This document shows, piece after piece, positions 6,001 through 56,340 of a stretch of 58,328 nt of DNA. Source of the stretch: Bacteroidaceae bacterium. Its GTDB lineage: Bacteria > Bacteroidota > Bacteroidia > Bacteroidales > Bacteroidaceae. Position numbers and translations under genes: made by a program. Numbering within the stretch: the stretch's first letter is position 1; each line of letters begins with the position of its first letter. The stretch lies in contig JAGCKB010000176.1 in the NCBI GenBank assembly GCA_017647725.1, forward strand, positions 1 through 58,328, given 5' to 3'. The notes beneath the pieces were generated by a model, which did no database searches, was not told the DNA's origin, and saw only the letters and a program-made list of their open reading frames with translations.

Positions 6001-9000
6001 GATTTAGGCCTTAAAACGTGGCTTGCTGCACAATACATCCAAGAGGAAAACAATGGTAGAAATGTATTGTTGCTCAGTGCTACACCCTTTACCAACAAAC
6101 CGCTTGAATATTATTCAATACTTTCTTTGGTGGCGAATGATATGCTTGAACGCAAGGGCTTCTTTAATGTAGACCAGTTCTTTGCTACCTTTATGGAGGC
6201 TGACAATGAACTGGAGATTGGTGCTAACGGCAGACCGACGCAGAAAACAAATGTGCGCAGATTCAGGAATAATGGCTTGTTCCAGCAGTTGCTTAGTGAG
6301 TTTATAGACATCAAGGGAGAGGAGGACAATCCCGAACTTGTGAGACCTGAAAGACTTAATAAGGAGTATAAGATTGCGCAGAACGATTTGACAGCCGAGG
6401 CTATGGCTGCCGCACAAGAGTTATTGAGTGATAACGATACTGTGTTGCAGGGTATTACTCACGCAAGAGCTGCGGCGTTCTCGCCCTATGCTACATCATT
6501 GCTTGGCACGCTGCCTAAAAATCACAAGGAGTTTGTAAAGAACTCGCCAAAGATTGATGCTACTATCAAGATGATTGAACAGAATATCAAGGATAGACCC
6601 GATGCCGGACAGATTATTTATTCTGAGGTTGGCGTGGAGTATTTTCCTCTGATACGCGATTATCTTGTAAAGGAGAGTGGTTTAAAGCCTAGTGAGGTGC
6701 GTATAATCACCGGTGCGACATCGAACAACGAGCGCGTGAATATTCAGTCGGCCTTCAACGATGGCGAGGTTAAGGTTGTTATTGGTAGCCCAGCCATCAA
6801 GGAGGGTTTGAACTTGCAGGGTAACACGACTGATATGTATATACTTTCACTGCCTTGGAACTTTACACAGTTGCGACAGATTGAGGGACGCGGCTGGAGA
6901 CAAGGCAACAGATGGGAGAATATACGTATCAACTATATGCTGACCAATGATAGTGTAGATGTGTTTATGTTGCAAAGACTACAGCTGAAGCAGGGCTTGT
7001 ATAATGAGGCTATGAAGAGCGGTGCAGAGAGCTTGGACGTGAGCGACATTGACACCGCGGAATTGAAAACAGCCTTGATTACTGACCCTGCTGTGCGTGC
7101 CGAGATTGTGACCATACAGGAGAGGGCGAAACTGCAACAGGAGAAAACGCAGATAGAGGCTGACCTGTCTTTTGTTATGCGCAAGTATGAGGCGTATAAC
7201 AAACTGGTGGAAAAGCTAGAAAGCCAAAAGGGCTCTATCAAAATGTATAGAGAATGGGCAAAAAAGGGAGACGCATATTGGGCGCAGAGAGCCGAGCAAG
7301 AAGAGGCGCTGCTGCCGAATATAGAAAACGAACTCGAGGCTGAGAAGCAGAACCTCCTCAAGAAGGGCGTGAATGTTGATGACATTATAAGCCAAACTCA
7401 GCAGGCGCAGAGTGCCATCGCAGCTATTGAAGCGAAGATTGACAACCTTAAAGAGTTTCAAGAGGAACTGACGCAGAAATACCGTGAGGAGAATGAGGCT
7501 AAAGAGATGGAGCGGGGCGACTTGGTTTCTACCTATATAAAGGAACGCAGGGCTGAAAACAGAGGCAGTTTCTACAAGATTCGCCCGAAAGAGAGTGAAA
7601 CCAAGGTCACTGATGAGAACGCTGAGGATGGGGTGTTGTTCCGCGGGGTGAACAAGCAAGCCGAGGAGTTTAATAAGACACATAAGGGCGGTGTTCCGGT
7701 TGTTGAGATTGATCCCAATAATATGGAAGCGGAGCTTGCTGAAGAAGGGTTTGCGACCGAAGAAATAGAAGAACTAAAGGAAAGGATGAAAAAAAGTGTC
7801 GCTGCCGTGTACCACACCGACAAAAAGATTATATATTTGCTTGTTCCCTCACAAGACAAGGAGTCGGTATATTCTATTTGTTGGCACGAAGATACGCATG
7901 CGGCGATTGATTTCCTTGGTCTTACGCCAGAAATGATGGACGAGTTCTATTCTTTTGCGCAAGGGAAAAAGAAAGAGGCGTTTGAGGCCCTTTTGGATAA
8001 GATTGGATATGAGATAGAAGAATATCCGGAGGAGAGTTTGGCCTATGGCGTACAAGCGATGCACATTCTTGATAATTGGGGCGCTGAAACGCTGTCCAAA
8101 CTGTTTGGCTCTACTGCAGAAGGTGCGCAGAGACAGATGGAAATTATTCAACCTTTAATAGATTATATCAACAATGGAAGACAAGGAACACAAAGCTCTG
8201 TTGGAGAAGTTGTCCGAGATAGGGGCATGTATAACAACACAGCAAATCAAAAGAAAACTGCAGAAACAGAAGGAACAGGAGCAACAGCAACAGGAGGACT
8301 CACAGAAGACCAAATAGACGCCATTCAGTCAGTGATGGGTATCTCCCGCAAGGAGGTAATTGAGCGCTACGGCAAGAAGAATAGAACAATGCTCCGCAAG
8401 GGTGAAGGCTCACTTACTGACCGCGAGGTGGTGATGGAGAGTGACCCGTATTCAAAGGTGCTTGGCAAGCCACGTTACTATGGCAAGCGTCAGCGTGAGT
8501 TTGTCGCTCGACAGCGCAGGAGAATGGCTGAGAAGGCTCGAGGGGTGGCTGAGAAGCTGAACCTTGACAATGTTGAGGTGCTGGAGAGCGCTAAGGGCTT
8601 GACGGGCAAGAAGGCTGCGTCAAAGGGTTGGTTCGATTCAAGGACGGGAAAGATTACGGTTGTTGTGTCTAACCACGGCAGCACAACTGATATTACCGAG
8701 ACTGTGCTGCACGAGGCAGTGGCGCATTATGGGTTGAGAAGATTGTTTGGAAATAGTTTTGATGCTTTCCTTGACAATGTGTTCCGTAATGTGACACCGG
8801 AGATTCGTGCGGAGATTACCGAGCTTGCGAAAAGGAATGGTTGGGATTTCCACACTGCGACGGAGGAGTATCTTGCAAGCCTTGCAGAGAATACGAACTT
8901 TGAGAGGGTTAACCCGTCGTTGTGGAGCAATATCAAGAGCTTCTTTATGAAGATGCTTGCGAAGGTGGGTATTACTCTTGATGAGCCTTTGGGTGACAAT

Positions 9001-12000
9001 GAGCTGCGATACATTCTGTGGAGGAGCTACAGAAATATGGCGCTCGACGGCAATCTTGACAATGTTTTTGGCTTGGCTGAGGATGTTGCCAAGCAGTATG
9101 AGCTTGGTGTGGGTAACTATGCAGAAGCGTTGCCGGAGGATAGCGAGGCTGCGGAGGATGAGAGTGGTATCCGTTTCCGTGCGGGTGAACCGGGTATGCC
9201 GGGCTCGGCACGTGAGGAGTATAACCGCAGGGTGCGCAGACCAAATAAGAGTGGCAGCGTGACGATTACCGAGAATGTTGTTGGCAGGGCGTTGGAGGCT
9301 TATCAGGATAGTATGTTTGCATTGAAGGTTTTGCAAGATGCTGTTCAGGCTGAAACGGGAAATGTGATCGCCGATAACGAGAATGCGTATATGGCGGAGA
9401 ATCGTATGAGTTCTACTAACCAAGCGCAGACCGAGGTGTATATGCGTGACTACTTTGCTCCGTTGATGGAGGAGGTGCGCGAATTGATTGGAGCGGGCGT
9501 TGAATATGTGGATGTTGTGCGATACTTGCACGCAAAACACGGTATTGAGCGTAACGAGTATATGCGACGTAAGCAGGCTGAGGAGGCAGCGCGCAAGGAT
9601 ATGGGCACTGAGCCGGTATTGCCGAAAGAGGGTGAACCGGATTACGAGGCTAAGGTAGCGGAAAAGGCGGCTTGGAGAGAGGCGCTTGAGGAACGCACTG
9701 AGCTATATGTAAAGATGTTTGCAAAGCGCGACTATTCGGGATTGACAGCGCTGACTGAGACGGCGAACGCAAAGGAGGCTGAGAAAGCGGCACAGAAGAT
9801 GGTTGACGAGTTTGAAAGAGCGCACGACACAAAACCGTTGTGGAAGGCTATCAACAGTGCTACAAAGGAGAGCTTGAAGAATAATTTTGTCTGCGGCTTG
9901 ATTGACCGCGCGACTTACGACAGCGTGAGTAGGATGTTTGATTTTTATATTCCTTTGCGCGGCTGGGATGAGAATGTCGCGGCAAATGAGTATGAGTACT
10001 TGACAAGCAATAAGCCGATGCTTTCGCCTACCTTAAAGACAATGCACGGAAGAACGAGCCTTGCGGATGACCCGCTGGCAACCATTGCTCATATGGCGAC
10101 GAGTGCGATTGTGCAGGGTAACAGAAACCTGATGAAGCAGAAGTTTATGAACTTTGTGATGAACAACCCGACAAGCCTTGTGACGGTTAGCGAACAGTGG
10201 TATGTGCTGAATAACGCTACGAAGGAGTGGGAGCCGTATACTCCTACTATCCCGGAGGATGCAACACCTGAGCAGGTTGTGAAGATTCTCGAGGATTTTG
10301 AGGATAAGATGCTTGCTGCGGAGCGCGAGGGTACAGCAACACGCAAACGTGCGGGTTTAAAGATTGGTCTCCACGCTACAAAGGCGGAAGGACAGGAGCA
10401 CGTGGTAAGGGTTAAACGCAACGGAAAGGAGTATTGCATATATATTAACGGAAACCCACGCGCGGCACAGGCACTGAATGGATTGACAAACCCTGACGCG
10501 TCTGGCAACAAAGCATACAAACGCGCGCTGGAGGTGAAGAACTTTATGGCACGTATGTTTACGTCGCAGAACCCGGCATTTATCATTACCAACCTTACGC
10601 GAGATGTTATTTGGGCGGGAACAGCGGTTGCAGCGAAGGAGAATGGCGCGTATGTGAGACAGTACACAAAGAACATAACCGGTGCATTGGTGAAGCTCAA
10701 GCTGCCGAAGCTAATCCGTAAGTTCCAAAATGGTACGCTCAATATGAATAATGAGGTTGAGAGATATTTCAACGAGTTTATGCTCAATGGTGGCGAGACT
10801 GGATTTACACAGGTGAACACTGTTGATGATTACAAGAAGAAAATCAACCGCCTTGTCGAAGAGAGTAAGAATGACGTTGGAATACCCGAGAGAGCTTGGC
10901 GAGGTTTTAGGAAGGGCGTTAAGTTTTTGGGCAGCGGCGTTGAGTTTTTGAACCGCAGCGCGGAGGATGTGACACGTTTCAATGTGTATATGACCTCGCG
11001 TCAAATGGGTAGGAGTATTGCCCGGAGTGTTTGGGATGCGAAGGAGATTACCGTAAACTTCAACAAGAAGGGTAGCGGTGGTATGCGTGCTAGATATGTG
11101 AACTTTGCCTATATCTTCTTTAATGCAACGGTGCAGAGTGCTGCGAACTTTGGCAAATTGGCGTATAACAACCCGGGCAAAATGTCGGCGGCGCTGGGCT
11201 TGACTGGAACGATAGGTTTTATGCTGCCTATAATTAATAACGCTATGTTGGCGATGTTTGGTGACGATGATGACAAAGACGCATATTGGAACTTACCTGA
11301 ATGGGTGAGAAGAAACAATATAGTGTTGTGGGTTGGCGGTGGTTTTATCACGATACCGCTACCGCACGAACTTAGACCTTTCTATGGTATGGGTGAGGCT
11401 GCATATTCAGTGCTTGCCGGTAAACAGGAGGCTGAAGATGCTATTGCCAGCGCGGCGAAGGGATTTGCCGAGTTATTGCCTCTTGACTTTACAGGTAATG
11501 GCGGTGATGCGGTTATAAACTTTACACCGACGATTGTGCAACCTATTGTGCAAATATGGAGAAACACTGATTACTTTGGCAAGCCTATTTACAGGGATAA
11601 TCCGTTCAACAAACGCGCGCCGGAATGGACTAAGGCGTATAAGGGTACAAACAGCACTCTTGTTGCTGCGACTAAGTGGCTGAATGAGCTCGGTGGCGGT
11701 GACGATGTGAAGAGTGGCGGTCTTTTGGACTGGAATCCTGCTTGGATTGAACATACTGTCGAGAGTTACTTGGGCGGTGTAGGCAAGACGCTGAATAAGA
11801 CTTATAAGACGTTCTCTATGATTTGGGATGATGAAATGCGTGAGTGGAAGAATGTTCCCGTTGTGAGCAGTTTCTACCAAAGTGAGGATGAGAAAACCGC
11901 AGACCGACATTTGAACGAGGAATATTTTGACTTGGTTGACGGTTTGGAGGAGTTTGAATATCTGCTGAATGGTTATAGGAAGCAGATTATGAAAGGAAAG

Positions 12001-12216
12001 ACCGAATATGAAGGCGCGTATGAGGAAATGATTAACGCGCCCGAGATGGAGATGTATTGGACGGTTAAAAAGTATAGCGGTAAGGTTAGTGAGCTTAATT
12101 CAATCATCAAAAGTTACCCCCTCAGTGATACTGAAAAGAAGGAGATTGAGACTGAAATAAGGAAGCTAAAACAGGAAATGTTGACCGAGGTTGATAAATT
12201 GCTACCCGAGGAGTGA
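55..12216 (+). CDS. giant polyvalent protein (>=4053 aa): N6-adenine DNA methyltransferase + SNF2/DEAD-like helicase + two zincin-like motifs + hydrophobic C-terminal region; probably virion-packaged/injected
   Basis: Single uninterrupted ORF. The same frame has no stop back to nt 1, so the real 5' end may lie outside the window (the listed start is GTG). Motifs read from the translation: EPSVGIGNF and NPPY (MTase); GFGKT, DEVH, SATP, QIEGRGWRQGN (helicase); HEDTH and HEAVAH (metallopeptidase-like). It ends ~110 nt upstream of the portal gene, followed by a hairpin terminator. Confidence 0.85.
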   Translation: MKRVFDAELEKAMATFDEETVQKLMDDPEAALSQMNEIDREEAQSFVDAFVRYEAMIDRVSDDIDERIKASDKEIERRVNKGDGLIHPAMLRGENGQPARRVYVVSGNVAISGDGTIDKAKSSDFIIVRDAETGELDKATASDFESVDETIDTGAEKQTAADEIARQMAEEKAALIEGGSQGESSQPVSGEGVSPVAVQGENSPVVDKKVRRAELEKIIPVKGKKKQFTEVEPAVTAEYISLLTDDAAKQVAAADKYIAMIQEAQQKADPVEALEMDEQIAYWESVKALLAPQEQAESAQPVAETAPVVETPQATNEMQEADLTEDVKTEDVNQSENNLEMVVEGAAPGNGGVYADNQGNPVDADGKLIIEEVASIDEITDEDFETPTRNVQLPAIPENVAIALGANGRPVVIKKNVFEKNSNTHVELEPEDSRNILRSALYNPNIVGSTQPIRRPDYKVAIRTGEQNAVVVLDVYQEKDFVEIVGWRMVNEKGLAKMQRQAEREGGQFLILSPNDGSAAALSALPLGLSSASESTTQSAKEQENTQKSGETADNGGENAVPEGDITDSVLNGLWESREEYGYSEDVAPLYDALYEALPESHPVSKRGKYIRQLIETSKKYNHPLAKAVLDNVAEGAAPGNGGVEENEEVGPFGRIYRQFKGKAKEAIRFLLSKKEGEAVGALSHPEIGDIDLVWGEEGTSNSDGYGLAKLAKYHPEVLENLQEIINDMRVTKRSANRVQLEGDTHQAAVRLTWDNKSKNWLLTAFEKKNSVSDNTTDTGETSDGGKQNDTATLQNTVSTDESTTQSAKEQEISVKSDETAQKGRKPSGKSGPKQINVESLMGELNKKGEAKLSDHVVNPSGNKLVTDERYNELKERMRKKLGGQMNIGVDPEILAIGTEMAVYHIEKGARKFADFAKGMIADLGDAIRPYLKAFYNGARELPEIEEAGLAKDMTPYDDVKAFDVANFDKPSVDAMATAETVTREAEVAKDVEAVKAPKKREGAEGKTLRKATQEDLESNPEVYYKGEKHRILMLVHRGEQASNGNFTKPVIERVYLENMQSVKVDDLYVEDTDVNASINENDFLPSQQTNINNLKDDNNGRKENTHTDNSGAQLGREELPDTEQVGAGVPVQDTARNSKRKRRNAGVGSSELGNGPQYDVNRNYTNEEIEEIVSSVTDIVDGKVVITGEVTDDIKAIVRGYESGGIAKKGRGILDEYYTDGKIVDAVNLLVAPYFNSTTPIRVLEPSVGIGNFIEAVNNIPTSEVVAFEINETTARIAKILYPDVDVNLRSFETEFIDESGNKKPLPKKYSLVIGNPPYGSHRGLYKGLGEESKIARYEDYFVKRSLDVLDEGGVLAMVLPSSWMDRHTKFGGYTIERAYRLPSGAFEATQVGTDIVILRKDSSVPVMERAPYFEQHPERVLGEIKERKGRYGRTETFVEGDIDAAIEAIKKENAEQVAELLSIEKNNDALNDIESAVEETGGTEKAVAIVKEAQDSEKAASKREQSTSSLDAMPSESGLRNAKADNKPATKPSGKPGKYKVELNRGVETLPTALQFTHEFSDGEVEAFADTDYEGALSNPAKHKRFANYIGGQAIHDFYYAEGDIYSKLAQLEQEKNYIVENYGAEQYEKQKALLESVMPKQKSLEEITISPNTTFVKNLNVLTEGGRVSLKDMFVEFCHKLPRQAFGNSSPWEVVGYVNNEQVHGTDKQRNALIRERRKRVANDLFNKFLYEELSDNAKRQVVAAFNREYNSTYRPDYSKVPMFSTINKDFKGKPLKLTSVQLAGIGRMTVKGVGVLAHEVGFGKTLSGILAMHEAMTRGFAEKPLIVVPNDNILKQWVETIGEVLPNATVNTLGNLGTGYDLTNFKVNPGEFTIVTYEGLKAMSFSDYTYNHLAAKFSYITEDLNKHQSERDVQKEIEKKNELKGKMKRGAKQSYMFEDFGFDWLTVDEVHNANHIVSKVRLDKSVASDFRSQSQRTSDLGLKTWLAAQYIQEENNGRNVLLLSATPFTNKPLEYYSILSLVANDMLERKGFFNVDQFFATFMEADNELEIGANGRPTQKTNVRRFRNNGLFQQLLSEFIDIKGEEDNPELVRPERLNKEYKIAQNDLTAEAMAAAQELLSDNDTVLQGITHARAAAFSPYATSLLGTLPKNHKEFVKNSPKIDATIKMIEQNIKDRPDAGQIIYSEVGVEYFPLIRDYLVKESGLKPSEVRIITGATSNNERVNIQSAFNDGEVKVVIGSPAIKEGLNLQGNTTDMYILSLPWNFTQLRQIEGRGWRQGNRWENIRINYMLTNDSVDVFMLQRLQLKQGLYNEAMKSGAESLDVSDIDTAELKTALITDPAVRAEIVTIQERAKLQQEKTQIEADLSFVMRKYEAYNKLVEKLESQKGSIKMYREWAKKGDAYWAQRAEQEEALLPNIENELEAEKQNLLKKGVNVDDIISQTQQAQSAIAAIEAKIDNLKEFQEELTQKYREENEAKEMERGDLVSTYIKERRAENRGSFYKIRPKESETKVTDENAEDGVLFRGVNKQAEEFNKTHKGGVPVVEIDPNNMEAELAEEGFATEEIEELKERMKKSVAAVYHTDKKIIYLLVPSQDKESVYSICWHEDTHAAIDFLGLTPEMMDEFYSFAQGKKKEAFEALLDKIGYEIEEYPEESLAYGVQAMHILDNWGAETLSKLFGSTAEGAQRQMEIIQPLIDYINNGRQGTQSSVGEVVRDRGMYNNTANQKKTAETEGTGATATGGLTEDQIDAIQSVMGISRKEVIERYGKKNRTMLRKGEGSLTDREVVMESDPYSKVLGKPRYYGKRQREFVARQRRRMAEKARGVAEKLNLDNVEVLESAKGLTGKKAASKGWFDSRTGKITVVVSNHGSTTDITETVLHEAVAHYGLRRLFGNSFDAFLDNVFRNVTPEIRAEITELAKRNGWDFHTATEEYLASLAENTNFERVNPSLWSNIKSFFMKMLAKVGITLDEPLGDNELRYILWRSYRNMALDGNLDNVFGLAEDVAKQYELGVGNYAEALPEDSEAAEDESGIRFRAGEPGMPGSAREEYNRRVRRPNKSGSVTITENVVGRALEAYQDSMFALKVLQDAVQAETGNVIADNENAYMAENRMSSTNQAQTEVYMRDYFAPLMEEVRELIGAGVEYVDVVRYLHAKHGIERNEYMRRKQAEEAARKDMGTEPVLPKEGEPDYEAKVAEKAAWREALEERTELYVKMFAKRDYSGLTALTETANAKEAEKAAQKMVDEFERAHDTKPLWKAINSATKESLKNNFVCGLIDRATYDSVSRMFDFYIPLRGWDENVAANEYEYLTSNKPMLSPTLKTMHGRTSLADDPLATIAHMATSAIVQGNRNLMKQKFMNFVMNNPTSLVTVSEQWYVLNNATKEWEPYTPTIPEDATPEQVVKILEDFEDKMLAAEREGTATRKRAGLKIGLHATKAEGQEHVVRVKRNGKEYCIYINGNPRAAQALNGLTNPDASGNKAYKRALEVKNFMARMFTSQNPAFIITNLTRDVIWAGTAVAAKENGAYVRQYTKNITGALVKLKLPKLIRKFQNGTLNMNNEVERYFNEFMLNGGETGFTQVNTVDDYKKKINRLVEESKNDVGIPERAWRGFRKGVKFLGSGVEFLNRSAEDVTRFNVYMTSRQMGRSIARSVWDAKEITVNFNKKGSGGMRARYVNFAYIFFNATVQSAANFGKLAYNNPGKMSAALGLTGTIGFMLPIINNAMLAMFGDDDDKDAYWNLPEWVRRNNIVLWVGGGFITIPLPHELRPFYGMGEAAYSVLAGKQEAEDAIASAAKGFAELLPLDFTGNGGDAVINFTPTIVQPIVQIWRNTDYFGKPIYRDNPFNKRAPEWTKAYKGTNSTLVAATKWLNELGGGDDVKSGGLLDWNPAWIEHTVESYLGGVGKTLNKTYKTFSMIWDDEMREWKNVPVVSSFYQSEDEKTADRHLNEEYFDLVDGLEEFEYLLNGYRKQIMKGKTEYEGAYEEMINAPEMEMYWTVKKYSGKVSELNSIIKSYPLSDTEKKEIETEIRKLKQEMLTEVDKLLPEE
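1084..1986 (+). repeat. 30-nt linker repeat pair inside the giant ORF (copies 1084-1113 and 1957-1986)
   Basis: GAGGGTGC(C/G)GCTCCCGGCAATGGCGG(T/A)GTG is 28/30 identical between copies. Both copies encode EGAAPGNGGV. Confidence 0.9.
1653..2491 (+). repeat. 35-nt perfect repeat pair inside the giant ORF (copies 1653-1687 and 2457-2491)
   Basis: CGAAAGTACAACACAATCTGCAAAAGAGCAAGAGA is identical in both copies, and both encode ESTTQSAKEQE. Each copy is followed a few nt later by the near-repeat AAAAGTG(G/A)CGAAACTGCG. Confidence 0.9.
3652..4315 (+). other. N6-adenine DNA methyltransferase domain of the giant ORF
   Basis: SAM-binding-like EPSVGIGNF at nt 3790-3816 and catalytic NPPY (in VIGNPPYG) at nt 4003-4014. 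Domain borders are approximate. Confidence 0.8.
5400..6930 (+). other. SNF2/DEAD-like helicase domain of the giant ORF
   Basis: Motif I HEVGFGKT (GFGKT at nt 5467-5481), motif II DEVH (5908-5919), motif III SATP (6076-6087), motif VI-like QIEGRGWRQGN (6877-6909). Confidence 0.8.
7885..7899 (+). other. HExxH zincin-like motif 1 (HEDTH) in the giant ORF
   Basis: Context is SVYSICWHEDTHAAIDF. This is a motif-only call. Confidence 0.45.
8710..8727 (+). other. HExxxH zincin-like motif 2 (HEAVAH) in the giant ORF
   Basis: Context TDITETVLHEAVAHYGLRRLFG resembles the context of motif 1: a beta-strand-like run, then H-E. This is a motif-only call. Confidence 0.4.
10570..11420 (+). other. hydrophobic (possible membrane-inserting) segments in the C-terminal quarter of the giant ORF
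   Basis: Runs such as NPAFIITNLTRDVIWAGTAVAA, YVNFAYIFFNATVQSAANFG, MSAALGLTGTIGFMLPIINNAMLAMFG and NIVLWVGGGFITIPLP were read from the translation. Confidence 0.45.
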
Positions 12217-27108: not shown

Positions 27109-27411
27109 ATGAACAAGAATGCTAAAGAGGTATATGACCGAGTTCTCGCGGTTGTGCTCGATGACTTTGGATTGACCGCGGAAAAAATGTTTAACTCAAA
27201 CGAACCTGACTGTGTAAATGCCAGAGCGTCGTTGATTATATCTTTACGCGATGAGGGGTTGAGCGATAAAGAGATCGCCGATTGCACACAGAAAATGAGA
27301 CGTTGCAGCGTGTGCCTCATCCGTAATAGATATAGTGACAAAACGGCGCACTGGGAGGTTAAGATGTGCATTGAACGAATTAAAAAGCTGAAAGGTGGGG
27401 CTAACTCATAA
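27109..27411 (+). CDS. hypothetical protein with possible HTH segment
   Basis: 100 aa. LSDKEIADCTQ resembles an HTH. It converges on, and overlaps by 11 nt, the integrase 3' end. Confidence 0.45.
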   Translation: MNKNAKEVYDRVLAVVLDDFGLTAEKMFNSNEPDCVNARASLIISLRDEGLSDKEIADCTQKMRRCSVCLIRNRYSDKTAHWEVKMCIERIKKLKGGANS

Positions 27412-28570
27412 TCGCATCGATTACTTTCCGAGCAGCTTCATCCATAGCTTTCTCACTTTTACGAATGTATATGTTGGTCACTTCATTTCCATTCGAGTGA
27501 CCGAGTAAGTCGGCTACCATATCGATTGGTATTCCGCATTCGACGTGCGCTATAGTGGCGAATGTGTGGCGTGCCCAATAGGTTGATAGGCCGGGGAATA
27601 GTGGGGTTATGACCTTTTTACCTCCTCGGCCGACTCTGTTGATTGAGCCAATCCTCTTTAAGCCATCATTAATGTGCCCGATAAAATCATTGTACTTTTT
27701 GTAACTGTCGCAAGGATTGAGTAGGTACTCTTTGCCTCGATACCGGTTGATGATTTCCATTATCTTGGGTTCTATTTTTATGGAATATGGCTTGTGCGTT
27801 TTTTGTCTAACGTATTCAATTCTGCCATTGATGATATTCTCTTCTTTCAATAAACATAAATCACCGATATTGATACCCCGCATAAGAACCATAAGAACGA
27901 ATAGGTCTTTATATCTTTCCTGATACTCCTCAACAGGGTAGTCTCTTAATATCTTTAGATCTTCTAGAGATAGCGATCTTTTTTGCGTTGGCTCTTCCTT
28001 TATTTTAAACTTGCGGAAAGGGTAATTCGTAATCACTTCGTCATCGAGTGCGTCATTGAATACCGCTCGTAGGGTTCGCATTATGATGCTTCTCGTATTA
28101 GGTTTCATCGTTTTGGCCATATAGGCATCAAAACTGAACAACCAATCTTTGTTTATTTTTTCAAACGATGCACGATTGTCATATTTCTCTATTATAGCCC
28201 GCGCCCGGCGGTAAACAACTTGTGTCTTTACGGATCGTCTTAGCGTGGCCTTTTCAAAGTAAGCGAAGAAATCGTTTTGTGTTTGTGTGCCCTCGAGCAT
28301 AGCTTTAATGCTCGACAAGTCGTTGGGTAAATCGCCTGTCCTTCGCAACTCGTATAACCGCATATCTACATCAGCTTTTTGAGCCGCGATTTGATTGTTA
28401 ATTACTGATGCCCGGGGGTGATTGATTACTTTAACGCCATCCCATTGTTCTGGGTTTAGTTTTATATTCAGCATTAAATACGTGCTTTTGCCTTTGAGGT
28501 TGAGACGTAATTTAAGTGGGTAGGGGGCATTGCCCTTGCGACAATCGAGAAAAAATTTAGTTGTAACCAT
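27401..28570 (-). CDS. int: tyrosine recombinase / phage integrase
   Basis: 389 aa. C-terminal YWARHTFATIAH ... LLGHSN ... TNIYIRK (R, H-x-x-R, H, Y catalytic pattern). It lies adjacent to the attP-like site. Confidence 0.9.
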   Translation of the reverse strand: MVTTKFFLDCRKGNAPYPLKLRLNLKGKSTYLMLNIKLNPEQWDGVKVINHPRASVINNQIAAQKADVDMRLYELRRTGDLPNDLSSIKAMLEGTQTQNDFFAYFEKATLRRSVKTQVVYRRARAIIEKYDNRASFEKINKDWLFSFDAYMAKTMKPNTRSIIMRTLRAVFNDALDDEVITNYPFRKFKIKEEPTQKRSLSLEDLKILRDYPVEEYQERYKDLFVLMVLMRGINIGDLCLLKEENIINGRIEYVRQKTHKPYSIKIEPKIMEIINRYRGKEYLLNPCDSYKKYNDFIGHINDGLKRIGSINRVGRGGKKVITPLFPGLSTYWARHTFATIAHVECGIPIDMVADLLGHSNGNEVTNIYIRKSEKAMDEAARKVIDAIMS

Positions 28571-28665: not shown

Positions 28666-28734
28666 AAACGAATATCAATCTTTTTAGGGCCGCTTTTAAT
28701 GGTTTTTAAGCACCTAAAGTGTTGATATTCGTTT
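28666..28734. repeat. 13-bp perfect inverted repeat AAACGAATATCAA / TTGATATTCGTTT
   Basis: 28666-28678 and 28722-28734, just beside the tRNA-derived core. Confidence 0.85.
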
Positions 28735-51167: not shown

Positions 51168-51764
51168 TTAGAATGGAACGGCCTCGACGAGAGCACCGTT
51201 GGAGATTTCAACATCGTCGCAGCAACGGATGAAGTTCATACGACTGCGGCTGTCGGGGAGTTCGCTGGGGCGATCGGCACCGAAGAGGGCGGCGGTTACT
51301 TTGAACCAAGAGGTCATTGCGCGATGCCATTTTTTATAACCCTCGCCATCGGGGTTGTCTTTCCAGTCATTGCCTTCGATGCGGCAGCGAGCGCGGTCGA
51401 TGGCGGCGCGGACGTCGGCCTCGGTGTATTCGCGTTCTTCTTCTACTGCGGTAGAGGGTTCTTCGGCTGCTGTGGGTGGGGTGGCGACGGGGACAATGGT
51501 GGGTGGGGTGTATTCGCGCTCTTCGAGAGCGGTTTCAGCGGTTGCCGGTTCTGGGGTTACCTCTGTTGCGGGCTCGACCGCAGCGACTTGTGCGGGCTTG
51601 ACCGCAGCGACTTGTGCGGGCTTGACTGCATCGACGGAAAAATTAGATACTTGCTCGCGCGCTTCGATGGGCTGCGCTGTCTGTGGCTGACTGCCGAGGA
51701 TGGCAGAGAGGAAGCCTGCGAGCTGTGGCGACAGCCCGATGTTTACGTTTAATGTGAATGTCAT
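51168..51764 (-). CDS. hypothetical protein with tandem VKPAQVAA repeats
   Basis: 198 aa. A 24-bp tandem DNA repeat (about 2.5 copies) lies near 51575-51640. Confidence 0.55.
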   Translation of the reverse strand: MTFTLNVNIGLSPQLAGFLSAILGSQPQTAQPIEAREQVSNFSVDAVKPAQVAAVKPAQVAAVEPATEVTPEPATAETALEEREYTPPTIVPVATPPTAAEEPSTAVEEEREYTEADVRAAIDRARCRIEGNDWKDNPDGEGYKKWHRAMTSWFKVTAALFGADRPSELPDSRSRMNFIRCCDDVEISNGALVEAVPF

Positions 51765-51791: not shown

Positions 51792-51980
51792 TTAGTTGGC
51801 ACGCCAGAAGATGATGAGGTCGCGGCCGAATACGCGGTAGGAGTTGCCGACGAGGTGGGCTTTGAGCTTACCGGCGGTGATGTAGCGTTGCACGCTGCGC
51901 TTGCTCATCTGCAATATCTGTGCGCAGTCTTTTACTTTGAGCCTCGCGGTGAGGCTGATGTTGGGTTGTTCTTGGCACAT
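51792..51980 (-). CDS. excisionase-family (MerR-like) HTH protein
   Basis: LKVKDCAQILQMSKRSVQRYITAGKLKAHLVGNSYRVFGRDLIIF. Confidence 0.6.
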   Translation of the reverse strand: MCQEQPNISLTARLKVKDCAQILQMSKRSVQRYITAGKLKAHLVGNSYRVFGRDLIIFWRAN

Positions 51981-51992
51981 ATTATACAGTTA

Positions 51993-52124
51993 TTAAATGA
52001 TGATGTGGTCGATGTTTTCTTCGTAGTCGATGTTTTCTTCGTCGTCGTAATAGTAGGTTAATCCGCAGTGGGGGCAGGTGCCGCCCTCGGGGTCGCCTAA
52101 GCAGTAATCGCATCCGTGGCTCAT
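51993..52124 (-). CDS. small zinc-ribbon protein with acidic repeat tail
   Basis: Internal ATG (MSHGCDYCLGDPEGGTCPHCG...) of the track ORF 51993..52301. The upstream 59 codons are His/Arg-rich and look non-coding. An 18-bp tandem repeat encodes EENIDY/EENIDH. Confidence 0.45.
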   Translation of the reverse strand: MSHGCDYCLGDPEGGTCPHCGLTYYYDDEENIDYEENIDHIII

Positions 52125-52303
52125 AGTTGTTCCATTTTGTTTAGTTTCCACTGGCAACAACCGGCTGTGGCGGCAGATATGACTGTTGCGATGAGGTTGG
52201 CTGTTGTGTCGCCACTTGCGAAGATGATTGTTGCGATGAAGGACACGGCTAGCAATCGCTGAAGAAAAGTTCTCATAATTATATAGTTTTAGAATTTCCA
52301 ATT

Positions 52304-52335
52304 AAAAAACTCCCGGAGCTTCGCAGCGGCGGGAG
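52304..52335 (-). terminator. intrinsic terminator (minus-strand sense)
   Basis: The minus strand reads CTCCCG-CC-GCT-GCGA-AGC-TC-CGGGAG followed by TTTTTT, a GNRA-capped hairpin plus U6. On the plus strand no T-run follows. Confidence 0.65.
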
Positions 52336-53048
52336 GAGTAATTTTACTATGAAAAAAATTTATTTCCGCTCGCTTGCGGAGTGGATGCCGAGGACTCGAA
52401 CCTCCTGATTCTTTTTGGCGGGGTTAAACTTGGTGCCTCCAACAGGCGCTGCATCCGTGTGGAGGCCGATGGCCTCCGGATAATTTAAAAATCAATACAT
52501 TGTAATAGCTATATGACCGAGCCTCACGGCTTGAGTTTTGGGGGCGCACCGGCGGGTGATAAAATTTAAACATAACCATAATAAACTCAAAATGAAAAAG
52601 ATTTGTGCCGGTGCGCTGTGTGCCCTTGCGTGTTCCGATGTGTACGCTTGCCGAGGTTTATGGCGCATCTGTAATCGTTGTGGATGCGCGGTTGCTCAAG
52701 GGCTGTGCCTCGCTCGTTCAACTGCAAGGCGTTATAAAGGTGCTCGTTCCAACAAGACTAAAATTTAAAAGCAAATCAAAGGTTTATTCACAACAAATGG
52801 TGTTGGAACGAGCTGTTTAATCGTTATTATACTCTGCGGTGCTCTTTCCCTGCACCGCTTCAAGGGTGGGCTGTGCTGTCGCGGGTGCCCATCCCCGGGG
52901 ATTGCTTCGGCCTCGCTCGATGACGCGGATGTTACTCTTATTGTCAAGGGCTTTCCGGTATATCCCTGTATTGTATCAATATGTCAAAAATCTCTTTAGT
53001 TCCCCGATGCCCGTTCGACGCGGCCGCTCTTGCTCTTATCGAGGGGTC
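52336..53048 (-). ncRNA. candidate large structured non-coding RNA or structured regulatory DNA (strand assignment tentative)
   Basis: No credible ORF, at least 7 perfect complementary stems of 7-13 bp including long-range ones, and a minus-sense terminator at its end. See findings. Confidence 0.3.
52382..52457 (-). ncRNA. 76-nt tRNA-like element (acceptor + D-like + T-arm) lacking a foldable anticodon arm
   Basis: Minus strand: CGGATGC AG CGCC-TGTTGGA-GGCA ... GGAGG-TTCGAGT-CCTCG GCATCCA. The acceptor pairs 6/7, and the T-loop is the canonical TTCGAGT. The 28 nt between the D-arm and T-arm contain no 5-bp stem. Confidence 0.35.
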
Positions 53049-53210
53049 TTAATTTTGCTGCGCCAAATCAACAAATAACTCTTCTCTGCTGTAAATCTTT
53101 ATCCCGAACAGCCGTATCGTTGTGATGCGGCTTTTGGTGTTTTGCCACTCGGTGAGTCCAATCCTGTTGGTGCGCTCTATGGTCACCTCTTTCTGTATAA
53201 TTGCTTTCAT
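53049..53210 (-). CDS. small hypothetical protein (53 aa; not in the ORF track)
   Basis: My own translation gives MKAIIQKEVTIERTNRIGLTEWQNTKSRITTIRLFGIKIYSREELFVDLAQQN. It has an ATGA overlap with the cro-like gene. Confidence 0.45.
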   Translation of the reverse strand: MKAIIQKEVTIERTNRIGLTEWQNTKSRITTIRLFGIKIYSREELFVDLAQQN

Positions 53211-53380
53211 AGGCTGTATTTCTTTAGCGCAAGGCGGCGGACGGCGTCGGCCTTGGGGGTGTTGTACTTGCCGATGAGGCAGTCGCTGACGTAGTTCCAG
53301 TTGCAGCCGAGTTCTTTGGCGAGCTTGGTTTTTGCGCCGTGGACTACGTGAATTATTGTTACTTCTTTGGTTGTTTTCAT
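53207..53380 (-). CDS. Cro-like HTH regulator (57 aa; not in the ORF track)
   Basis: My own translation gives MKTTKEVTIIHVVHGAKTKLAKELGCNWNYVSDCLIGKYNTPKADAVRRLALKKYSL. It contains an HTH-like core and is divergent from the cI-like gene. Confidence 0.55.
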   Translation of the reverse strand: MKTTKEVTIIHVVHGAKTKLAKELGCNWNYVSDCLIGKYNTPKADAVRRLALKKYSL

Positions 53381-53582
53381 ATATTTTTTAGCTTTTCTTG
53401 TTGCTTGTGTTGTTTTATTGTTATATTTTTACCATCTTTATTTCGGTAGTGAAATCAATAGTGGAACTTGTACAGGTATCGCTATTGAGAACCACGAGGG
53501 CAAAGATAGAGGATAGTCGTAGAATATGCAAATATTTTTATAGAAAATTTACAAAATTCTTCGACCTCGCTCTTTATTTAGA
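53381..53582. promoter_or_regulatory. divergent switch region between the cro-like and cI-like genes
   Basis: A 200-bp A/T-rich intergenic region containing a 7-bp inverted repeat TCAATAG / CTATTGA (53455-53461 and 53482-53488). Promoters are not mapped. Confidence 0.45.
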
Positions 53583-54380
53583 ATGAATCTAAACACTTGT
53601 GTTATGGAAAAGACTGTAAAACAAAGGCTTATGAAGTTTGCAGAATTTAGAAATTTAAGCATTTCTAAATTTGAAAGTTTATGCGGGCTTGGGAATGGCT
53701 ATGTCGGCAAGTTAAAAAGCGAGCCGGGGAGTAGAAAATTAGAGGATATTCTAAAAGCATTTCCAGAACTTAATAGAGCGTGGCTTTTATTTGGCGAAGG
53801 AGAGATGCTAAAGAGTGATATTACTATTTCCGGCGACATCACCGTCAATGGGAATGGTAACAGCCACATAGGTCACGGGCAACACGGTGTGCCTGCAATA
53901 ATAGAAATAAAGGAAAACGGTGTAGAGGTAGAATGTCCCAACTGCGGCGAGGTGATAGAAGTCGCAAGCAGTGCAGTTATCCCCCTCGTTCCGCCCGAGA
54001 TAGCAAAGAAACCCGACCTTAATCTTGAGAGTTTTCGCCACAACTGCCCCCAGCAGATGGAAGAAGTAGACCTCCGTCAAGTATGGGGTAAAGGTGTATT
54101 CCTTATGAAAGTCGATACCCGAGCAATGGAACCCGAATACCGCGAAGGTACATTCCTTGTCCTGCGTCGGCTTAAAGACCTCTCCTATGCACGCCCCGAT
54201 GGCAGCGCATACGTCATCGACACAATGCGCCCACACACCCTGTTTAGGTATCTATCAAAAGAGCGCGACGGCACCTACGTCCTCTCTGCAGAGAGCGACA
54301 AGCGCGGACCAATATACCTCAACGCTGAGGATATAATAAATATATACGATGTAGTAGGAAGTTTCAGAATTGGAAGATAA
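53583..54380 (+). CDS. cI-like repressor (XRE-type HTH + S24/LexA-like C-terminal domain with substituted catalytic residues)
   Basis: N-terminal LSISKFESLCGLGNGYVGKL is an HTH. The C-terminal FLMKVDTRAMEPEYREGTFLVL ... LFRYL aligns by eye to V.GDSM.P....GD...V ... KRL. An alternative start is at 53604. Confidence 0.7.
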   Translation: MNLNTCVMEKTVKQRLMKFAEFRNLSISKFESLCGLGNGYVGKLKSEPGSRKLEDILKAFPELNRAWLLFGEGEMLKSDITISGDITVNGNGNSHIGHGQHGVPAIIEIKENGVEVECPNCGEVIEVASSAVIPLVPPEIAKKPDLNLESFRHNCPQQMEEVDLRQVWGKGVFLMKVDTRAMEPEYREGTFLVLRRLKDLSYARPDGSAYVIDTMRPHTLFRYLSKERDGTYVLSAESDKRGPIYLNAEDIINIYDVVGSFRIGR

Positions 54381-55373: not shown

Positions 55374-55390
55374 CCAAGCGATAAAAACTC

Positions 55391-55430
55391 TATATAATAT
55401 ATACTACTATGTTGTAGTATATATTATATA
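55391..55430. repeat. perfect 17-bp-arm inverted repeat
   Basis: TATATAATATATACTAC - tatgtt - GTAGTATATATTATATA. Confidence 0.9.
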
Positions 55431-55453
55431 GGCGGAAAATAGGCTATTTGGGA

Positions 55454-55505
55454 TTACCCCTATACTATATAAATAAAAATTTTTATTTATATAGTATAGG
55501 GGTAA
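55454..55505. repeat. perfect 52-bp palindrome (26-bp arms, no spacer)
   Basis: TTACCCCTATACTATATAAATAAAAA / TTTTTATTTATATAGTATAGGGGTAA. Confidence 0.9.
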
Positions 55506-55870
55506 AAGTTTGTAGGGGACGCGGGCTTGGTGGGTGGTTCCAAAGGTCTAAAAGGGCATAGAGGGCTACAAGGGAAAGCTGAGAGCGAAATTAGGCACGG
55601 TGTAAAATAGCCTCTCTGCGCGGTTTTCTTGATGCGGGGTAAGGATTTTATCAGCAGGAGGGGTGAAAACGCAAGAGAGGGTGAATTATGGGGCAATGCG
55701 AGGGTTTTAAGTGGCAAGGTGTCTCGCGTGTGCGTAAGTGGGCGCTGGGCGGGTGTGGTGCATCGGGGGGAGCGGGCGTACCGGGGGGAGCGGGCGTGCC
55801 GGGAGCGAGAGCATAGAAGGGTGCCGAGGGCAAAAGGATTATGGCTTGGGAGGCGGACCAAAAATGGGTG
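55506..55870 (+). other. strongly G-rich, C-poor tract with more than 20 runs of G3 or longer
   Basis: Composition read by eye. It includes the 16-nt direct repeat CGGGGGGAGCGGGCGT at 55764-55779 and 55782-55797. The only ORFs are low-complexity artefacts. Confidence 0.8.
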
Positions 55871-55872
55871 GT

Positions 55873-56252
55873 GTAAACGATGTAAACAAAACTCTCGCGC
55901 GCGTATACTTTCCCGGGCAGAGGAGTTGCGTGCGTTTTTTATAAAAAAAGTGTGTTCTCAACTATTTTTTAAATCTTTTATAGGGAATTTTCCGTTTACT
56001 CCGTTTACATTGGGGTTTATTTATTGATTATTAAATAGTTAAGTGTAAACAAAGTGTAAACAAAGTGTGTTTTTTTCCGTTTACATTTGCAACTCCGTTT
56101 ACAAAATAGCTATAAAAGGCTAATTTTTTGTCGAAAAAAAAGTGTTCACAACTCAGTGGGGGGTCAAAAGTTGAAAAATTTTTGTTTACATTGTTTACAA
56201 ATTTTTCGCCGTTTTGTTTACAAATCTTGTTTTGTTTACAGGTTTTGTTTAC
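55873..56252. repeat. iteron array: 13 copies of YGTTTACA (9 forward, 4 reverse) interspersed with A/T-tract palindromes
   Basis: GTTTAC at 55994, 56003, 56079, 56097, 56184, 56193, 56216, 56234, 56247. GTAAAC at 55873, 55882, 56045, 56056. Palindromes: T6-AT-A6 at 55935-55948 and A5T5 at 56174-56183. Confidence 0.85.
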
Positions 56253-56340
56253 AATTTCTTGCGGTTTGTTGACAGGGATTTGGGAAGAAGAAGGGGAAAA
56301 GAAAAGTGCGGAGGTGTCCTACCACGACCGCACTAATGGA

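Follow-up and report, generated by a model that had tools for sequence, protein, structure and literature searches.

To our knowledge, only a few large bacterial or phage RNAs with complex folds have been described (GOLLD, ROOL, OLE, raiA, and some others), and what they do is an open question. GOLLD and ROOL are large and complex, are often found in prophages and near tRNAs, and are possibly co-transcribed with the latter (Weinberg et al., PMC5737381); the covariance model of ROOL comprises six multistem junctions as well as three pseudoknots (RF03087). Here, we discuss an island from a temperate Bacteroidales-type phage, within the early operon. The phage is carried on a contig of a Bacteroidaceae bacterium (JAGCKB010000176.1, positions 1-58,328; this whole stretch is called the window hereafter). 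On the minus strand, between the cro-like genes and the replication genes, the island contains a module of ~687 nucleotides (nt; ~690 in round figures) at 52304-52990, which has a 5' boundary motif at one end and, at the other, the U-tract that belongs to the second of two terminators, and which very probably represents an RNA structure under selection. Our preferred reading, to which we assign a probability of roughly 60%, is that the island is the gene for a large structured non-coding RNA that is processed, stable, and acts in trans early in infection. The original prediction, made from the DNA letters alone, had proposed a large structured RNA, discrete and read in the minus sense, with a terminator at its end; homologues, compensatory changes, and the ratio of G.U to A.C pairs support this proposal. 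Seven of the eight stems that it listed proved to be exactly complementary, and the eighth (53002-53008/53038-53046) is bulged, as had been claimed.

The island was compared in 11 lineages, i.e., the window, eight contigs from ENA and Logan metagenomes (L245, L248, L251, L258, L259, L263, L265, and L267), and two contigs from IMG/VR (L320 and L347). Besides the window, nine of these are full homologues and one, L347, is partial. The metagenome contigs were reached via homologues of the repressor and of a 53-amino-acid (aa) protein encoded upstream of the island, which are 72-86% identical for the latter, and the two IMG/VR contigs were found by a degenerate scan for the most conserved, central motif. 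L259 shares 68% identity with the window over the full 738 nt, and block identity to the window is 71-95% elsewhere (L245, L248, L258, L263, L267, L251, and L265). The alignments of the islands span 0.65-0.85 kb at 68-88% identity, which is about the level seen in the adjoining coding DNA. The 5' edge is sharp: in the nine ENA/Logan lineages (the window plus eight), conservation starts at a motif with the consensus CUUUGACAUACUGA, which in the window reads UUUUGACAUAUUGA (52976-52989, minus strand) and is unique there.

The island is located upstream of the genes for a 51-aa membrane protein and an excisionase-like protein in the window, L245, L248, L258, L259, and L263, and downstream of the excisionase-like gene in L251, L265, and L267. 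The replication genes further downstream vary by lineage as well, with DUF2800/PolA in some and an FtsK-like/PDDEXK protein in others. Within the early operon, the island thus behaves as a module that is self-contained and movable. A BLAST search of 50,697 GenBank phages gave no match to the island, and it was found by blastn, nhmmer, or covariance model in none of 240 loci that were reached via the neighboring DUF2800 nuclease in IMG/VR, metagenomes, and GTDB genomes. In the closest of the nuclease relatives that were checked, the segment from cro to the replication genes contains no comparable gap. When IMG/VR was scanned for exact copies of four motifs, i.e., the T-arm, the invariant block, terminator 2, and the 5' motif (all described below), 0 hits were obtained. 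When applied to 268 loci, a covariance model of the 5' domain matches this phage group only, and it misses L320 and L347, whose 5' parts differ.

The whole window contains 13 perfect inverted repeats of at least 10 bp (3.1 expected), two of which fall in the island, and four of at least 12 bp (0.25 expected). The 13-mer inverted repeat has a BLAST E-value of 0.009 within the island, and both the 13-bp and the 10-bp inverted repeats of the island are beyond chance. Compared with shuffled sequences, both strands fold better (z = -3.6 for the minus strand and -2.5 for the plus strand). The 5' part of the RNA is a multi-helix domain (52830-52992, minus strand, as are all parts of the RNA below) with a long-range helix GGGAU/AUCCC, a hairpin at 52836-52858, and a helix at 52867-52891. 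In an alignment of eight lineages, RNAalifold identified 30 pairs in this domain, 12 of which show double, i.e., compensatory, changes, vs. 0-3 in controls with the partners slid by 1-3 columns; the proportion of paired cells was 95.4% vs. 33-43% in the slid controls. The covariation score was reached by none of 500 shuffles, and covariance model R1 scores 161.5 bits on the 5' domain of the window.

Next along the RNA is a hairpin with a 13-bp stem and a 46-nt loop (52742-52813). The stem is exact, as the original prediction had it, but the hairpin is a variable element that is not present in all relatives: it is carried by the window, L251, and L320, and in an altered form by L259. The homologous stems are GCUCGUUUC/GAAACGAGC in L251 and GCUCGUUC/GAACGAGC in L320, and the loops are unrelated. 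A different small hairpin takes its place in L258, L263, L245, L267, and L265. It is followed by a hairpin with the conserved loop AG-UYGA-MMG (52707-52730), for which eight distinct arm pairs, all complementary, were found in nine lineages. The central domain comprises an outer helix GCCCUU(G)/(C)AAGGGC (52622-52703), an inner helix UGAG/CUCG with a variable tip (52663-52689), and a hairpin GCGU/ACGC (52628-52647) with the near-invariant loop GUAAGCG...CAUCGGAAC, and each of the three shows compensatory changes. Within the invariant block GUAAGCG(U/C)...CGGAAC(A/G)CGCA(A/G)GGGC, both variable positions change together with their pairing partners. The central domain is retained in L347 and L320 with new arm sequences; in L347, a distant relative (5380-6120, minus strand), the central motif is kept and the outer helix reads UCCCUU/AAGGGA.

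The 10-bp repeat forms a GC-clamped hairpin with a 53-nt AU-rich loop (52544-52616), which is present in all nine ENA/Logan lineages and also in L320. Its arms, 9-12 bp long and almost always perfect, come in eight different pairs in the nine lineages, and its loops measure 47-65 nt. A conserved small hairpin carrying AAGC(C)GU follows (52517-52535), for which two alternative pairings are possible, and then a 7-bp hairpin just 5' of a tRNA-like unit (52461-52477), with eight distinct arm pairs in eight lineages. In the 3' part, i.e., the latter hairpin together with the acceptor and T stems of the tRNA-like unit, 93.3% of the cells are paired vs. 42-58% in slid controls, and seven of the 17 pairs show double changes. 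In total, more than ten helices keep their pairing via compensatory changes. Homologues with compensatory covariation had been proposed as a check on the structure, and the ten further lineages provide them, with such changes widespread.

Several smaller observations concern the loops. AAAATTTAAA, which the original prediction had noted in both large loops, is not conserved in most relatives, and kissing of two AAAUUU loops is not conserved either. Of the three copies of CAAGGG that it had listed, the one in the helix of 52622-52628 belongs to a covarying helix and the one at 52861 overlaps the invariant part of a conserved helix, but the third is not conserved. Pairing of the 5' motif with UCAGUA is found in five lineages and is weak in others, and no claim is made for it. 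Likewise, an alternative terminator formed by CAUCGG and the 5' arm of the big hairpin was dropped, as it is absent in L251 and L265. A promoter within the AU-rich loops was not adopted: -7-like boxes (TAAATTTT) are present, but the -33 element and the spacing are inconsistent between lineages. Two GC-rich arms are followed by UUUUUCAUA, one in the big loop (52592-52617) and one past terminator 1 (52349-52374); on the plus strand, it reads as a repeated ATGAAAAA(A/G)ATTT and is conserved in most lineages. Some relatives contain GAAA/UUUC-rich repeat inserts (e.g., UUUUCACUUUUCACCUUUCACUUUUCAG) within the RNA (L245 at 6470-6540 and 6640-6710; also L258 and L248), which are placed either past the big hairpin, before the next one, or within the loop of the hairpin that precedes the tRNA-like unit.

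The strand that carries the RNA can be deduced from the mismatches. In ten hand-read helices, 489 cells are Watson-Crick pairs, 14 are G.U, and 1 is A.C. Since a G.U pair is an A.C mismatch on the other strand, the sense of the RNA is therefore that of the minus strand, and the U-tracts and the T-loop motif point the same way; hairpin terminators with U-tracts are found in the minus sense only. These data also bear on a DNA-level alternative, for which the original prediction had named an origin or a recombination site: the inverted repeats might act as protein-binding sites or cruciforms of a replication origin, a recombination or attachment site, or an operator cluster. AT-rich segments between GC-rich inverted repeats beside a replication module would suit such an element, and the tRNA-like sequence could be the relic of an attachment site. 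However, the excess of G.U over A.C indicates selection on one RNA strand, and the arms are replaced completely between lineages and yet stay complementary, which argues against a fixed protein-binding site. Furthermore, the module persists in lineages whose replication modules have been exchanged (DUF2800/PolA vs. FtsK-like/PDDEXK), and the integrase gene and the likely attP repeat are located 24 kb away. An element that works at the DNA level is thus highly improbable.

The RNA ends in a tRNA-like unit (52382-52456) that has a 6-bp acceptor stem, a D-like arm, a conserved ACCAAGUUUAAC in place of the anticodon arm, and a T arm with GGUUCGAGUCC. The original prediction of a tRNA-like sequence adjoining the structured RNA is borne out, and the acceptor and T stems covary (GGAUGC/GCAUCC, GGGAGC/GCUCCC, and GCGCAAG/CUUGCGC). 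In ten of the 11 lineages, such a unit forms the 3' end of the RNA; in the partial homologue L347, the nearest one follows the terminators. Two types can be distinguished. Type 1, found in the window, L258, L259, L263, and L267 and in a shortened form in L245 and L248, has the 6-bp acceptor stem, the D-like arm, the T arm with GGUUCGAGUCC, and a single-stranded ACCAAGUUUAAYC in the place of the anticodon arm. Type 2 (L251, L265, and L320) is a four-arm cloverleaf with an "anticodon" loop of 12 nt, whereas folds of the type in the window comprise acceptor, T, and D-like arms only. ARAGORN reported 0 tRNA genes in the window and eight relatives and called none of the tRNA-like units, and the Rfam tRNA model RF00005 gave no hit at E-values up to 10 in 51900-53600. 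L320 contains a second tRNA-like 3' half (GCGAGUUCGAGUCUCGC and an acceptor-like strand; 5880-5930, minus strand) just upstream of the RNA. In L347, a real tRNA-Leu(UAA) and an uncalled tRNA-like sequence, the latter with a long insert, flank the RNA, and two terminators are located between them.

Two nucleotides past the acceptor stem, a terminator scan found a terminator-like hairpin, UCCGC-AAGCGA-GCGGA followed by U7 (terminator 1; 52352-52380). Its stem covaries (ACCCG/CGGGU and UGCCAA/UUGGCA), and with the U-run 6-9 nt from the stem it is a weaker, non-canonical terminator. The AAGCGU-type loop of the small hairpin at 52517-52535 reappears in it. Terminator 2 (52304-52335) is an intrinsic terminator in the strict sense, a GC-rich, GNRA-capped hairpin directly followed by U6. 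It had already been recognized in the original prediction and is conserved in seven lineages, with a compensatory variant in L263 (CCCUCG/CGAGGG). Of the nine ENA/Logan lineages, seven have the pair of hairpin and U-tract terminators, as does L347 (8/11 in total). L251, L265, and L320 have no terminators; their next gene begins ~20-40 nt past the acceptor stem.

The position of the terminators raises the question of whether the RNA controls transcription in cis. The nutR-tR1 region of phage lambda and put of phage HK022 are non-coding antitermination regions that follow cro and have terminators upstream of the replication genes. By analogy, the nascent RNA might modify the polymerase or recruit a phage factor, so that the two terminators are read through into the replication genes and serve as a timing gate between immediate-early and early expression. 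The locus resembles these regions in that a non-coding segment of the early transcript follows cro and is succeeded by terminators before the replication genes. That the RNA is encoded on the same strand as its cro-like and replication neighbors, that the tandem terminators are conserved with compensatory changes, and that RNA and terminators move as one module in L267 all agree with such a role, and the AAGCGU loop, which is found in three hairpins including terminator 1, could be a protein-binding motif. In contrast, L251, L265, and L320 retain the RNA and the tRNA-like unit without terminators, the downstream genes differ among lineages, and no boxA/boxB-like pair was recognized. Known processive antitermination RNAs measure 70-120 nt, and those of the put/EAR type are compact, with two stems, and act on the polymerase so that terminators further downstream are suppressed. 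This RNA has ~560 nt plus a tRNA-like unit and is roughly ten times larger than nutR-tR1 or put. Antitermination, which had been suggested as an alternative in the original prediction, is weakened by the terminator-free lineages, although the position and the tandem terminators still fit, and we regard control in cis as unlikely but by no means negligible. Because the RNA and its tRNA-like unit are kept in lineages without terminators, a role of the unit as a processing handle is favored over antitermination in cis. In our estimation, it is an even call whether the RNA is processed and acts in trans or instead regulates in cis.

Before the RNA is compared with catalogued families, the coding capacity of the region needs to be considered. 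The original prediction had taken 52125-53048 to be free of open reading frames (ORFs). This applies to 52277-53048 only, since 52121-52276 is a real conserved gene on the minus strand, that of the 51-aa membrane protein, which lies outside the RNA, contains an FASG motif, and is conserved in six lineages; a protein search with its product found only itself. In the ENA/Logan lineages, gene callers left the island uncalled except for scattered, non-conserved calls, and no ORF or frame in it is conserved among the lineages. The alternative that small protein genes were missed by gene callers was weighed for a 58-aa, Cys-rich, lipoprotein-like ORF on the plus strand (52592-52768), which the original prediction had named as a possible refutation. 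This ORF has the start context AAAATGAAAAAG and a signal-peptide-like N-terminus, and an ATG is present on the plus strand in the big loop of every lineage. However, the ORFs that begin there vary from 21 to 113 aa, and their frame through the invariant block is one of three, depending on the lineage; moreover, the variable positions of that block covary with their RNA partners. A phmmer search of the 58-aa sequence against 1.84 billion proteins yielded three weak hits only (E 1e-5 to 2e-4), i.e., proteins of 822-1032 aa that are matched in several short stretches, and no PHROG or Pfam match was found. The ORF is thus not conserved and has no real homologues. Stop-codon recoding (TAG/TGA read-through) opened no long frame, and the codon-usage profile of the island is uninformative for such short stretches. 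The small-protein explanation is already largely refuted, and we consider it extremely unlikely.

In Rfam 15, no family reached its gathering score in the window, and five relatives gave sub-threshold hits only at E-values up to 1; over 51900-53600, nothing was found for GOLLD, ROOL, RNase P, introns, or tRNA at E-values up to 10. GOLLD (RF01998) is found neither in the window nor, at the thresholds just given, in this segment or the five relatives, and the covariance model of ROOL (RF03087) does not match either. Because of this lack of matches in Rfam 15, the RNA is not GOLLD, ROOL, tRNA, or transfer-messenger RNA (tmRNA). The comparison with GOLLD and ROOL, which was part of the original prediction, holds for the context, but not for the covariance models. 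As in those RNAs, there are several hundred nucleotides (~690 nt here) with many helices and junctions (more than ten covarying helices here), a phage as carrier, which is temperate here, and a tRNA or, in this case, a tRNA-like unit as neighbor. Unlike them, this RNA is found in Bacteroidales phages, has a fixed place in the early operon and its own terminators, and the neighbor is not a real tRNA but a non-canonical tRNA-like unit fused to its 3' end; L347, with tRNA-Leu upstream, is an exception to the latter difference.

Two partial hits to other families deserve mention. DUF2693 RNA (RF02956) scores 17.3 bits vs. a cut-off of 81.3, and only the first 45, unpaired positions of the 165-position model align, at the 5' boundary motif, with 119 positions deleted. 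The tmRNA model scores 21.7 bits on L245 vs. a cut-off of 47 (E 3.9e-5), covering the acceptor stem and the T arm only. The RNA resembles tmRNA in having these two elements without an anticodon arm, but the 310-position middle of the model, with the pseudoknots and the tag frame, is replaced by 19 nt, G3.U70 is lacking, and ARAGORN reported no tmRNA in the window or the relatives. An Rfam hit to CRISPR-DR6 with an E-value of 0.21 was judged to be due to chance, since its consensus is the CRISPR repeat of Pyrococcus furiosus. The similar size, the phage context, the tRNA-like neighbor, and the partial hits to DUF2693 RNA (5' motif) and tmRNA (tRNA-like part) might suggest a diverged member of a catalogued family, i.e., of GOLLD, ROOL, RNase P RNA, tmRNA, group I or II introns, or DUF2693 RNA. 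Yet, both partial hits cover under a third of the models, and with no gathering-score match in the window and only sub-threshold hits in the relatives, such descent is very unlikely. The RNA matches no catalogued family, i.e., none in Rfam 15 or in the literature searched, in which the published catalogs of candidate phage RNAs were covered in part.

The tRNA-like folds of the MALAT1 mascRNA, phage P4 CI RNA, and P1 c4 RNA set RNA ends via RNase P/Z, and a tRNA-like fold within a longer transcript is what this RNA shares with them. P4 CI and P1 c4 are RNase P-matured antisense immunity RNAs of ~77-79 nt with complementary target repeats nearby. In contrast, no pairing partner was found for the conserved ACCAAGUUUAA, which has no complementary target in the window, and processing is what we infer here from the fold.

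How the preferred reading might work can be outlined as follows. A promoter-like site of the Bacteroidetes type (TTTG, 20 nt, TATCTTTG) at 53501-53532 on the minus strand faces the cro-like genes and the island; it is the sole perfect -33/-7 match within 51900-53650 and is presumably in use. The RNA would then be made early, with or just after the cro-like genes and in the same direction as the operon, from this site near 53500. The tRNA-like unit would serve as a processing and stabilizing handle, with RNase P acting at its 5' side and RNase Z or exonucleases at its 3' side. Processing would thereby yield a stable RNA with a trans activity on the host; the same is suspected of GOLLD and ROOL. 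Lineage-specific inserts are carried by the variable hairpin tips.

One such insert resembles a CRISPR repeat. In the loop of the 13-bp hairpin, a type II-C repeat-like insert (52762-52794, minus strand) consists of GUUGUGA (52788-52794), 9 nt, and UGAUUUGCUUUUAAAUU (52762-52778). In the RNA sense, 16 of the 17 bases of UGAUUUGCUUUUAAAUU are those found at positions 5-21 of the Bacteroides fragilis type II-C repeat, which is 47 nt long, and GUUGUGA corresponds to the first seven bases of that repeat; the repeat sequence was confirmed in PMC6390457 and PMC9367070. In L320, the same 17-mer is located in a different hairpin tip, also in the RNA sense, and is directly preceded by GUUG (20/21). Forty nucleotides from the II-C insert of the window, AGUAUAAUAACGAUUAA (52817-52833, minus strand) agrees in 16 of 17 positions with the reverse-complemented type III-B repeat of B. 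fragilis (PMC9367070). Both comparison repeats are those of B. fragilis, which may not be the host of the phage, and either orientation of the III-B repeat may be the sense of the crRNA (CRISPR RNA). The island contains the best hit of the whole window for each of the two repeats, and 0 of 27,476 background windows score as high. The A. shahii 36-nt and B. fragilis I-B repeats gave no convincing match.

The CRISPR lead had initially been dropped, as the 17-mer had single, unrelated matches in IMG/VR; it was revived because L320, found independently via the central motif, is a member of the family. An IMG/VR scan with the 21-mer yielded six true arrays (77-nt period) and 18 other contigs with a lone copy. 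The latter, which are among L348-L372, represent at least four unrelated contexts, and in one contig (L364) the copy is located at the contig end. Behind some of the lone 21-nt copies there is a hairpin, and some are preceded by bases that could act as a guide. Such lone copies are solitary repeat units, a class that has been put forward and examined as RNA anti-CRISPRs. A search for a tracrRNA (trans-activating crRNA) anti-repeat beside the arrays in the fetched loci found further repeats only. By analogy with other type II-C systems, the 21 nt are presumably the part of the repeat that is kept in the mature crRNA and pairs with tracrRNA. As the insert of the window copies this tracrRNA-pairing part of the Bacteroidales II-C repeat, decoying of CRISPR components would be a plausible activity in trans.

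RNA anti-CRISPRs that consist of solitary repeat units (Racrs) have been described (Camara-Wilpert et al., 2023, PMC10651486), and rAcrIIA1, which is located in a 545-bp intergenic region, targets Cas9 (bioRxiv 10.64898/2026.06.03.729762). The island shares with these a lone CRISPR-repeat copy in a non-coding phage region without cas genes, and, as in Racr units, the first 17-21 nt of the Bacteroides II-C repeat are present in the RNA sense in the window and L320. The copy is a solitary repeat in part, with 17-21 of the 47 nt and no cas genes in the element. Racrs are small RNAs that are essentially the repeat alone, whereas here a variable loop within a conserved 690-nt RNA holds the repeat-like piece as a small insert. 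Unlike in rAcrIIA1, no anti-repeat or tracrRNA-like part was recognized, and the RNA is therefore not a single-guide RNA mimic of that kind. That the RNA works against CRISPR is, on the basis of these sequence similarities, a tentative and rather improbable suggestion. The same applies to its extension, a speculation, that the RNA represents a new class of phage "carrier" RNA, i.e., a multivalent RNA anti-CRISPR built on an ornate fold. A large, tRNA-tailed, nuclease-resistant scaffold would then be produced early in infection, and its tips would display parts of host CRISPR repeats, namely the II-C tracrRNA-pairing handle and, 40 nt away, the end of the III-B repeat, with which it might soak up tracrRNA/Cas9 and Cas6-type proteins.

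Several points weigh against a processed RNA that acts in trans and against its possible CRISPR function. Only ~11 lineages are available, and as several of these are closely related, the covariation counts include inherited changes. The promoter, the transcript ends, and the processing, and indeed the transcript itself and any function, are what we infer. The conserved core offers no clue to a target, and the tandem terminators, placed inside the operon and upstream of the replication genes, are also compatible with regulation in cis. The II-C-like insert is present in two of the 11 lineages only, and the copy in the window is interrupted by 9 nt and has a U where the IMG/VR arrays have a C.

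As to its surroundings, the window encodes a P22-like portal and a tyrosine integrase with a Bacteroidetes arm-binding domain (27401-28570). The early operon runs leftward, divergent from the gene for a CI-like repressor (53583-54380), and encodes, in this order, a 57-aa helix-turn-helix (HTH) protein, the 53-aa protein, the island, the 51-aa membrane protein, a zinc-ribbon peptide, an excisionase-like HTH_17 protein, a DUF2800/PD-(D/E)XK nuclease, an SSB-like protein, DNA polymerase A, and a VapE primase-helicase. The closest relatives of the nuclease are found in Prevotella, Alloprevotella, Duncaniella, and Bacteroides assemblies. The two small early genes upstream of the RNA (53049-53380, minus strand) encode the 57-aa protein (53207-53380), which shows a weak match to HTH_31 (E 0.0054, below the Pfam cut-off), and the 53-aa protein (53049-53210). 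Directly 3' of the latter gene, a hairpin CCCC(UC)GAU ... AUCGGGG (53002-53046, minus strand) is kept in L258, L268, L247, L256, and L251, where a single compensatory change, U-A to G-C, is seen. The original prediction had counted it among the stems of the island; it is conserved, but it is a separate unit that goes with the 53-aa gene rather than with the RNA, since genes separate the two both in L267/L268 and in L245. In relatives, a conserved gene of 57-60 aa is convergent with the 53-aa gene, and the window retains its last codons only (53062-53078). In L245, a 17-nt direct repeat bounds the cassette with this gene (5133-5337), suggesting that the cassette was gained or lost via recombination.

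Some further repeats were noted elsewhere in the window. Two long perfect palindromes, with arms of 18 bp (55390-55431) and 24 bp (55454-55505), are located in an AT-rich, ORF-poor segment (~55380-56330) downstream of the lysogeny-side genes. A 13-bp perfect inverted repeat with a 43-nt spacer (28666-28734), ~100 bp off the integrase gene, is a candidate attP or arm site. The gene for a 198-aa protein contains an in-frame tandem duplication with a direct repeat of ~24 nt (GGGCTTGACCGCAGCGACTTGTGC; 51573-51620), and that for the zinc-ribbon peptide an in-frame 18-nt repeat (52005-52040). A single ORF of 4053 aa occupies 55-12216 of the window; the relative L267 encodes a product of 3605 aa with the polyvalent-protein domains LPD14, ART-PolyVal, and Kinase-PolyVal.

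The RNA adds an example from Bacteroidales phages to the large ornate RNAs, and it does so at a fixed place in a well-understood regulatory setting, i.e., the early operon beside the CI/Cro switch. Through the fused tRNA-like unit, the long-noted association of ornate RNAs with tRNAs becomes explicit and can be tested in terms of a processing handle. Lone 21-nt handles of the type II-C repeat occur in several groups of Bacteroidales phages, and the presence of such a CRISPR repeat handle in variable tips, as seen in two lineages, offers a concrete and testable functional hypothesis for an ornate RNA.

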